Position numbers and translations under genes: made by a program. Below, in pieces: positions 29,065 through 30,350 of a stretch of DNA of 64,000 nucleotides. Location: NCBI GenBank assembly GCA_965207455.1, contig CBDBMJ010000001.1:1408001-1472000 (forward strand). Reading direction: 5' to 3'. The notes under the pieces are model-generated. The model had not been told where the DNA came from. It saw only the letters and a list, made by a program, of their open reading frames with translations, and did not search any database. The first letter of the stretch is position 1; the number at the start of each line of letters is the position of its first letter. The DNA comes from Bdellovibrionota bacterium (GTDB taxonomy: Bacteria > Bdellovibrionota > UBA1018 > CAIPTA01 > JAALKR01).

Positions 29065-29219
29065 ATGGATTTTTTTCAGGGGGGGCTTAAAGGGGGTACT
29101 GAAAAACGTGAAGGGGCAAAAATGAGATGCTTTCTTACATCTCCTAAGACCCTAAGCGCTTTCGCCTCTAAGCCTTTTCGCCCCTTCGCCGTGTACTCTA
29201 TACCGTTATAGCAAAGAAA

Positions 29220-29483
29220 CTATGTGGTAATAAAATCGTGGGCACGAACAGTTTTACGACCGTTTGCCTTTGCTCGACCTGCAGCTTGGGTAATGTGCCA
29301 GTGCAATATTTCATTTAGGCCAGTAATTGCATCAGAGGATGTATTACAGCCAAAGTTCCGTATAGTGGTTTTCACCTTACTGCTCACAGCAAGAGTCTCT
29401 AAGGTCTTTGTTGTACGCTTAGGGGTTCTTGTTGTTTTTGTTGTTTTCGTTGTTCTCTTTGTTCCGGTTTTTTGTCTTGCCAT
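29220..29483 (-). CDS. Bacterial histone-fold protein with a basic N-terminal tail
   Basis: Core ETLAVSSKVK...NTSSDAITGLNE...RAKANGRKTVRAHDF contains the histone RKTxxxxD motif and resembles Bdellovibrio and Leptospira histones. AAAGGA RBS. Confidence 0.9.
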   Translation of the reverse strand: MARQKTGTKRTTKTTKTTRTPKRTTKTLETLAVSSKVKTTIRNFGCNTSSDAITGLNEILHWHITQAAGRAKANGRKTVRAHDFITT

Positions 29484-29550
29484 ATCTAATATTTCCTTTC
29501 ATGAAATTAAGACGAATGTTTATAACGTTAATAACTATGTAACAGACTAA

Positions 29551-29579
29551 AGGGTAAATGCTTGTTTCTCACAGGTCAA
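29551..29579 (-). promoter_or_regulatory. Candidate histone-gene promoter TTGACC-N17-TACCCT
   Basis: Consensus-like hexamers with 17-bp spacing, about 70 bp upstream of the ATG. Confidence 0.45.
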
Positions 29580-29588
29580 AGAAAAAAA

Positions 29589-29624
29589 GCAAATAATGCA
29601 AATAATGCAAATAATGCAAATAAT
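29589..29624. repeat. Perfect 9-bp tandem repeat (GCAAATAAT)x4
   Basis: Read directly; lies between the divergent histone and receiver genes. Confidence 0.92.
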
Positions 29625-29717
29625 GGCAGCACACTGCTTCTTTAGGCAAAATTCCAGGGTTCGATTAGGTCTAGGAATCCCATTTGAAAGTTGCTATAAT
29701 TAAATAAAATAAGTTTT

Positions 29718-30350
29718 ATGAATAATGAAGCAAAAAAATATAAAGTCCCACGTATTTTAATTCTGGACGACAACAGCGATTTAGTGGACGTGTGTGCAGA
29801 CACGCTCCACGAGCTATACCATGTAATCAAAGCCACCTCTCCCTTTGAGGCTCTCAATTTAATGCTGGGAAGCAAAGGTGCCATAGATTTAATCCTTTCG
29901 GACTATATTATGCCTGGTATGAACGGGATAGAGCTTATAAAAAGGCTTCGTAAGGAAGGAATATATACACCAGCCATTCTATACTCTGGAAAAAAGATTG
30001 AAGAGCAATCGGATGAGTTTATTAAAATCATGGAGAAGCCATTTCGCATGAAAGAGTTAATGGAGGAGGCAGCCCGGGCCATTCATGTTATCCAGCAGGA
30101 CAGGAATTTTTCTGGAGAGTTCTCCGGTGCCCTCAAGCAACTGGATACAGCTATTCACAGTTTAGAGAAATTTCTAATGCACAAGCATAAAAACTTTTCA
30201 TCCTTAACTCCAGAGATGGCTCTTATTGCCCTAAAGAGCGACAGTACCTATGATGTTTTTGTGTCTTGGCATTCCCTCAAGCAAATGCAATTAACGATGA
30301 CGAGACCGTCTTCTGACCCGTCTGACCCGCCCGTTTCGCTTCCCACCTAG
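29718..30350 (+). CDS. Response regulator receiver protein with an unknown helical C-terminal region
   Basis: ILILDD, ILSDYIMPGMNG and KPF. Confidence 0.88.
   Translation: MNNEAKKYKVPRILILDDNSDLVDVCADTLHELYHVIKATSPFEALNLMLGSKGAIDLILSDYIMPGMNGIELIKRLRKEGIYTPAILYSGKKIEEQSDEFIKIMEKPFRMKELMEEAARAIHVIQQDRNFSGEFSGALKQLDTAIHSLEKFLMHKHKNFSSLTPEMALIALKSDSTYDVFVSWHSLKQMQLTMTRPSSDPSDPPVSLPT

Follow-up and report, generated by a model that had tools for sequence, protein, structure and literature searches.

The question raised by this locus is whether a bacterial histone carries a long, basic N-terminal tail and, if so, what such a tail does. Bacterial histones are a young field: HBb and HLp alone have been characterised both biochemically and structurally, and both are almost tail-less. 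In the window (the whole 64,000-nt stretch of DNA that was analysed), an earlier note had picked out a small gene as a histone with an H3-like, possibly modifiable tail, and had proposed tail-regulated chromatin, a proposal that is purely conjectural.

The gene and its tail-plus-fold sequence were re-derived from the window identically to the earlier description (Table 1). Translation from ATG to TAG gives an 87-aa product that reads MARQKTGTKRTTKTTKTTRTPKRTTKT, then LETLAVSSKVKTTIRNFGCNTSSDAITGLNEILHWHITQAAGRAKANGRKTVRAHDFITT (beginning LETLAVSSKVK... and ending RAKANGRKTVRAHDFITT). It is not a chance frame: 125 proteins of a 90%-clustered database match it at E ≤ 0.01; the alignment of 120 family members has 14 invariant core positions. 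The ATG is the first start codon past the in-frame TGA, and the position of this TGA means that no longer histone N-terminus is possible.

Table 1. Features of the histone locus, with positions in the window and residue numbers in the 87-aa product.
Feature	Position	Strand	Evidence
Histone gene, 87 codons plus TAG stop	29220..29483	-	ORF listing, translation, 125 homologs
N-terminal tail, residues 1-28	29400..29483	-	composition, AlphaFold2 (AF2)
In-frame 9-bp tandem repeat	29425..29464	-	Tandem Repeats Finder, period 9
Histone fold, residues 29-87 (59 aa)	29223..29399	-	AF2, Foldseek, invariant columns
Shine-Dalgarno-like AAGGA, 10 nt 5' of ATG	29494..29498	-	read from sequence
In-frame TGA, 6 codons 5' of ATG	29499..29501	-	stop-to-stop frame of 92 codons versus 87-codon ORF
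Terminator-like hairpin and T run, ~77 nt 3' of stop	29124..29143	-	consensus scan, pattern match only

The tail would not be made at all if translation started inside the ORF and yielded a bare fold. There is precedent for such an error: HLp has a 77-aa database form, and the Shine-Dalgarno position led to a corrected length of 63 aa (Hu et al., 2025, PMC12701072). Of the 16 database homologs extended by 20 aa or more, at least 7 seem to have over-called starts, with a non-basic stretch before an internal MAKK or MS, and most long non-basic N-termini of the family give the same impression. The AAGGA of our gene is also weaker and more distant from the start than the GGAGG of most homolog loci, a weak match that counts against our own preferred reading below. 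On the other side, no in-frame ATG follows codon 1, and start-type codons in frame elsewhere in the first half of the ORF are limited to the GTGs at V33 and V37. These sit within helix alpha1, adjoining the invariant S35-K36, and a start there would lose the nearly invariant E29 together with the beginning of alpha1. Moreover, the MAR start matches the MA[KR] start common to tailed and short homologs, the 9-bp repeat preserves the frame, and the peptide shares its basic character with confirmed family tails. The search for a start downstream of the tail thus left one plausible start codon; we consider a bare product highly improbable, and the tail belongs to the histone protein as far as sequence can tell.

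Family libraries alone would miss this histone: Pfam gave no match to the protein at E ≤ 10, and NCBIfam gave only a weak archaeal-histone match (E 0.013, 15.9 bits versus a cut-off of 50). Using phmmer against all PDB chains, we found the best solved relative to be 9qt0 (E 7.3e-9, query residues 28-84), a chain deposited as 'DUF1931 domain-containing protein' that is HLp of Leptospira perolatii. HBb/Bd0055 (8cmp/8fvx) followed at E 1.3e-5 and archaeal histone A at E 0.05; in bits, HLp scored 38.7 versus 28.4 for HBb. AF2, given 120 homologs as input, modelled the core at pLDDT above 90 (94-97 over residues 31-80), with alpha1 at residues 34-43, alpha2 at 50-73 and a one-turn alpha3 at 81-83. 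The top Foldseek hit of this model was 9qt0_A (TM 0.97 on target, rmsd 0.6 A, 50% identity), and HBb (TM 0.86-0.91) and the archaeal face-to-face (FtF) histone HTkC (0.88-0.89) ranked lower. These results uphold two claims of the earlier note, that the core is a histone fold and that its likeness to the Leptospira face-to-face type exceeds that to Bd0055.

According to Schwab et al. (2024, PMC11390915), FtF histones are defined by a predicted ring tetramer, the conserved residues 48/52/54/56/61 of the FtF profile are R, N, R, T and D, and bacterial dimer histones are without R48 and N52. The profile residues correspond here to R70/N74/R76/T78/D83 with identical spacing, and none of the five varies across the 120 aligned sequences. 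They comprise the dimer-dimer residues R70 and N74, four apart as in the profile, and the RxTxxxxD motif (R76, T78, D83); the histone fold has the truncated alpha3 of the FtF alpha3 class. Membership of the HBb/Bd0055-type dimer class, for which no confident multimer larger than the dimer is expected, was ruled out by R70 and N74, by the predicted tetramer described below and by the lower phmmer score. We conclude that the protein is one of the FtF alpha3 histones, whose representative is HLp of Leptospira perolatii.

The likeness to HLp (PDB 9QT0-9QT2) extends to the predicted assembly. Four copies of residues 26-87 were predicted together with a score of 0.92, against 0.17 for the best of three controls; 20 of 30 proteins solved as one-chain pairs reach the mark for this score, compared with 1 of 23 proteins solved as single chains. 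Contact agreement between runs was 100%, with partner pLDDT of at least 93. In addition to the histone handshake, the scored copy contacted a third copy through residues 65-66, 69-70, 72-74, 80, 82-83 and 85-86, and in the model this second interface is the HLp-type dimer-dimer surface. The HLp and HTkC tetramers have already been solved, so the prediction may reflect model memory or likeness. The conserved HLp tetramer residues R49, N53 and R55 (Hu et al., 2025, PMC12701072) align with R70, N74 and R76. On the other hand, two substitutions at the interface, A73 and H82 in place of S52 and T61 of HLp, count against an HLp-like tetramer, and RKT stands here where HLp has RTT. The same paper attributes 52% of the DNA-binding energy to R59, K21, K15, S14 and K17, which align with R80, R42, K36, S35 and K38. 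All five are kept here, as is the RD clamp, and conserved counterparts of HLp's DNA-contact residues are S35, K36, K38, R42, T48, T78 and R80. We infer by homology that the protein would form tetramers in vivo and would bind and wrap DNA non-specifically.

Ahead of this core lies a segment of 27-28 aa with 12 T, 6 K, 4 R and no D or E (residues 1-28), net +10 compared with +4 for the core, which agrees with the earlier description of a basic, low-complexity tail. Mean AF2 pLDDT was 52 over residues 1-10, 50 over 11-20 and 65 over 21-30, and no secondary structure was modelled before residue 34; the tail is thus predicted to be disordered. Tandem Repeats Finder detected 3.3-4.4 imperfect copies of the 9-bp unit with 87-90% matches, the codons ACA ACG AAA / ACA ACA AAA / ACA ACA AGA specifying TTK/TTK/TTR. 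This detectable repeat covers only 10-13 of the 28 tail residues. The peptide contains TTK three times, KRTTKT twice and TPKR once, and we compared these counts with 100,000 composition-preserving shuffles of the tail. The earlier claim of a repetitive tail held in part: two copies of KRTTKT exceeded chance (reached in 4e-5 of shuffles), but three of TTK were marginal (5%). The KRTTKT copies differ in their Arg codon (AGA versus CGT), which is not what a recent DNA duplication would give.

Two other parts of the earlier description did not hold up. TPKR had been singled out as an S/TPxK/R motif of H1-type tails, but a [ST]Px[KR] match arose in 16% of the tail shuffles, so that TPKR is without statistical weight. 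Across the family the motif was not enriched either, occurring in 4 of 49 basic tails versus 2.1 expected, a count that 16% of shuffles reached and that leaves out P0182, a tailed protein with two motifs that the anchor missed. A likeness to H1-type S/TPxK/R tails was therefore rejected as not going beyond composition. Occasional S/TPxK motifs and repeats do occur in the family tails P0133, P0182 and L112. The conserved N-terminus of H3 is ARTKQTARKS..., and the earlier note had likened the start of the tail to that of H3 (MARTKQT). Only M-A-R-x-K is common to the two, and this is a generic start of the family (MAKK/MARK/MATR); with Pfam blank as above, homology to the eukaryotic H3 tail was rejected.

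We surveyed tails across the family, counting as tail the residues ahead of the position aligned with E29. HLp has 7 by this measure, and its seven N-terminal residues (about 6-7) are invisible in the crystals (PMC12701072). Relatives are numerous: a 50%-clustered library held 1467 representatives at E ≤ 0.001, 220 of them at E ≤ 1e-10, and a pattern scan of 185,579 species genomes gave 533 matches, of which 488 encode a relative, at loci mostly labelled Elusimicrobiota, Bdellovibrionota or Myxococcota and otherwise scattered. In 120 database proteins taken as called, the median tail was 8 aa, and tails of at least 10, 15, 20 and 25 aa were present in 49, 28, 16 and 10 proteins, respectively. 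With Shine-Dalgarno-guided starts at 79 of the best 80 loci (our own locus, L001, was excluded, and L060 was dropped since the start heuristic gave a 238-aa GTG frame), the median was 6 aa, typically MAKKKM or MAKKM. Tails of at least 10 aa occurred at 14 of these loci, at least 15 aa at 10 and at least 20 aa at 5, one of them (L051) probably over-called and trimmed for the motif count; only L112 (37 aa) and L091 (29 aa) reached 25 aa. The tail studied here ranks third in length among the 80 species-genome loci with its own counted, and about fifth among the 120 database proteins; the 80 loci had been ranked with a query that included the tail, which may favour tailed members. The representative search added tails of ~30-50 aa in P0194, P0142, P0182, P0133, P0166 and P0146, so that family tails range from 2 to ~50 aa.

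Conservation of the tail had been set beforehand as a test of the earlier note, and it was not found: the closest core relatives (73-79% identity) carry differing tails of 3-12 aa, namely 10 aa in P0002 (79%), 12 aa in P0003 (75%) and 3 aa in P0011 (73%), and P0004 (71%) has 23 aa. Core identity and tail length showed no correlation (Spearman rho 0.11, p 0.22, n = 118). In five genomes of the same order an FtF-type gene was matched at E ≤ 1e-17, each with a stub of the MAKKK(K)M or MAKKSKKM type, and the single genome of the same family (88% complete) gave no match with this histone query. Among loci L001-L032, tblastn of the ileS C-terminus, thyA, the response regulator and the downstream ORF matched our own locus alone; gene order therefore cannot back orthology of the short-tailed genes of the order. 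These results suggest that the tail is a lineage-specific N-terminal extension, intrinsically disordered according to the model.

Such a pattern could arise without selection, repeat slippage having expanded the short MAKK stub of the family into a neutral by-product with no function of its own. The in-frame 9-bp tandem repeat, the wide length range with no conserved sequence, the independence of tail length from core identity and a filler residue that follows genome GC (see below) would all fit. However, the long tails of the family are almost always strongly basic: we collected 49 distinct members with basic tails of 15-52 aa that carry a net 0.25 charges or more per residue and differ in sequence. 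Drift would not hold charge so consistently, and the part of this tail outside the detectable repeat is more than half of its residues. A purely neutral origin thus seems unlikely to us.

The existence of charged tails on bacterial FtF histones is already in print; their function is not. Schwab et al. (2024, PMC11390915) describe tails on bacterial FtF histones as frequent, as positively charged and 'H3-like' in most cases and as sharing no conserved sequence, and the FtF group as present in Bdellovibrionota, Myxococcota, Planctomycetota and Spirochaetota. This disagrees with the view of bacterial histones as bare folds from which the earlier note had started. Hocher et al. (2023, PMC10627809) state that most bacterial singlet histones are without long disordered N-terminal tails, and our full-text literature searches turned up no experimental work on the tail of a bacterial histone. 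Our protein fits the account of Schwab et al. in how common tails are, in their charge, in the absence of a conserved sequence and in phylum range, but its tail is among the longer ones and unusually Thr-rich. It is a striking example of a tailed FtF histone, not a new kind of chromatin protein, and is notable only for the length and Thr content of the tail.

We examined the Thr content against the composition of the host genome, a small one (2.4 Mb, 40% GC) that probably belongs to Bdellovibrionota. Across 17 tails of at least 9 aa, some of them kin and so not independent, the Ala fraction rose with locus GC (Spearman rho 0.75, p 5e-4), and the Thr fraction, in the same 17 non-independent tails, tended in the opposite direction (rho -0.46, p 0.07). 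Both low-GC long tails are Thr-rich, ours with 43% T at a locus GC of 44% (3.3-kb locus) and L112 with 35% T at 38%; P0008 has 8 Thr among the 27 residues of its tail. Within the genome, Thr makes up 5.4% of the long ORFs. Among 6214 mechanical ORFs of at least 60 aa, only four combine at least 8 T with a net charge of at least +8 in some 28-aa window; the best window of the histone has 13 T, and those of the other three ORFs have 8 T each. The tail is therefore the most Thr-rich basic segment of this genome, and an explanation by composition alone was rejected, since it accounts for the richness only partly. The excess over other basic tails is likewise not fully explained by base composition together with the generic idiom of such tails.

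The tail could be a platform on which Thr residues, including that of TPKR, are phosphorylated by Hanks-type kinases or Lys residues are acylated, so that modification lowers the charge of the tail and adjusts compaction in the manner of the H1 and H3 tails of eukaryotes. The Thr enrichment relative to the genome, the Thr-rich long tails of L112 and P0008 and the KRTTKT peptide, kept twice despite different Arg codons, are consistent with this idea, and two genes of the genome pass the Pfam cut-off for the Pkinase family. However, two such kinases are ordinary, the same search being positive in 11 of 14 control genomes, and no modification machinery was linked to this tail. The shuffling results for TPKR and for the family motif speak against a regulated platform as well, as does a tail sequence that is unconserved even in the closest relatives, and low GC together with an ACA-ACA-AAA unit can give Thr without selection. 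We consider regulation of this kind quite unlikely. A still more specific form, in which the Thr content (12 of 28) was selected for and the tail is a multi-site phospho-switch by which Hanks-type kinases release or tighten FtF-histone chromatin, is in our judgement very unlikely; if true, it would give bacteria a counterpart of H1/H3 tail phosphorylation, with tail length set by the copy number of the 9-bp TTK unit.

The reading that we prefer, and consider likely, is that four disordered +10 tails add non-specific electrostatic DNA binding to an HLp-like, DNA-wrapping tetramer, any role of the tail being one that we infer. By homology, two histone-fold dimers would close into a ring tetramer through R70, N74 and R76, around which DNA would wrap non-specifically; the length wrapped by HLp is ~60 bp. 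The tail would leave the fold a few residues ahead of S35-K36, which align with S14-K15 of HLp, a DNA contact of the 'paired ends of helices' type. With exits so near this contact, the four tails would add about +40 of charge per tetramer at the DNA surface. They would most likely strengthen non-specific binding, with charge neutralisation or bridging of neighbouring DNA, in the manner of H1-type and HU-type lysine-rich tails. The tail grew at least in part through expansion of the in-frame 9-bp repeat, and Thr in place of Ala as the filler fits a low-GC genome.

Known systems resemble this arrangement in part. The N-terminus of HLp is also disordered, but it is a 7-residue stub where our protein has the full +10 tail. 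HBb/Bd0055 of Bdellovibrio bacteriovorus shares the alpha3-truncated fold (~40% identity), yet HBb-type histones form dimers that bend DNA, without the R and N seen where dimer meets dimer and with no long basic tail. The tailed histones of Asgard archaea and eukaryotic H3/H4 likewise have a disordered basic extension before the histone fold, but these tails have no sequence relationship to ours beyond M-A-R-x-K, and those histones stack through nucleosomal four-helix bundles, whereas the FtF tetramer is a ring. The tails of H1, chlamydial Hc1/Hc2 and mycobacterial HU/MDP1 are low-complexity, rich in K/A/T/P/S and disordered, and they add non-specific DNA affinity; they are carried by unrelated folds (winged helix, HU) or make up the whole protein, and most are C-terminal. 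With its HLp-like core, unambiguous start and tail more highly charged than the core, our protein is a clean natural test case for tail function, and a comparison of the full-length protein with residues 28-87 would reveal any effect of the tail on wrapping, bridging or compaction.

The tailed histone is one of several nucleoid proteins in its genome, given a second histone of HBb type and three HU/IHF-family genes. The second histone gene (L002/L120, C1:293221-293424, plus strand) encodes a bare 62-aa protein of the HBb/Bd0055 type that reads ...AAKADGRKTIMDRDI, without the FtF residues R and N (...EAAKADGRKT... versus ...GRAKANGRKT... in the tailed protein). One genome thus has both a tail-less dimer-type and a tailed FtF-type histone. 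Leptospira is reported to be without HU/IHF and a second histone (PMC12701072), whereas this genome has both. A third histone-like match at C1:1361655 (E 0.023) was excluded as spurious, being a 62-codon frame without a start codon.

Other K/T/R/A low-complexity segments occur in the same genome, for example an 80-aa basic C-terminal extension of ribosomal protein L21 and the end of a 140-aa protein, KKKRTTKKTTKKKTTRRKKKR. Low-complexity proteins of this type are encoded at L113-L118 (C1:565819-566241, 1159143-1159460, 1593912-1594415, 1071868-1072548, 172244-172795 and 1508710-1509669). The set includes a 105-aa protein consisting almost wholly of KKATR-type repeats and three lysine-repeat proteins of 167, 226 and 319 aa with no Pfam family; together with L21 and the KKKRTTKKTTKKKTTRRKKKR protein, its members may be H1-like nucleoid proteins.

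The family survey also turned up variant architectures. Doublet forms of 114-150 aa with two matched stretches (P0121-P0130 and others in the representative library) are probably covalent pseudodimers of the FtF-like fold, and P0240 is a 650-aa protein with a histone fold at its C-terminus. At L013, L020, L021 and L027, loci of relatives in the same class, a Cys-rich segment (CSSCKK...YW.CNVSTCN...) lies upstream of the histone fold in the same open frame. These look like the ZZ-type histone fusion of Schwab et al., a likeness drawn from the description in that paper.

The histone gene stands by itself: thyA converges on it, and a response-regulator gene at 29718 diverges from it. A sigma-70 scan found no minus-strand promoter within 29484-29717. 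This 234-bp divergent intergenic region contains a perfect 9-bp tandem repeat, GCAAATAAT x 4.1, at 29589-29625, about 106-142 nt 5' of the histone ATG, which may serve as an array for regulator binding or as an A/T-tract element. Downstream of the gene, the terminator-like hairpin, as a pattern match, has a 7-pair stem and a 6-nt loop followed by ATTTTTG. The spacer between thyA and the histone gene (29065-29219) also has a 16-bp direct repeat (1.9 copies at 29152-29182) and two arms, one G-rich and one C-rich (GAAGGGGCAAAA ... TTTTCGCCCCTTC), whose possible pairing would enclose a loop of ~50 nt, and it may be a shared bidirectional terminator region.
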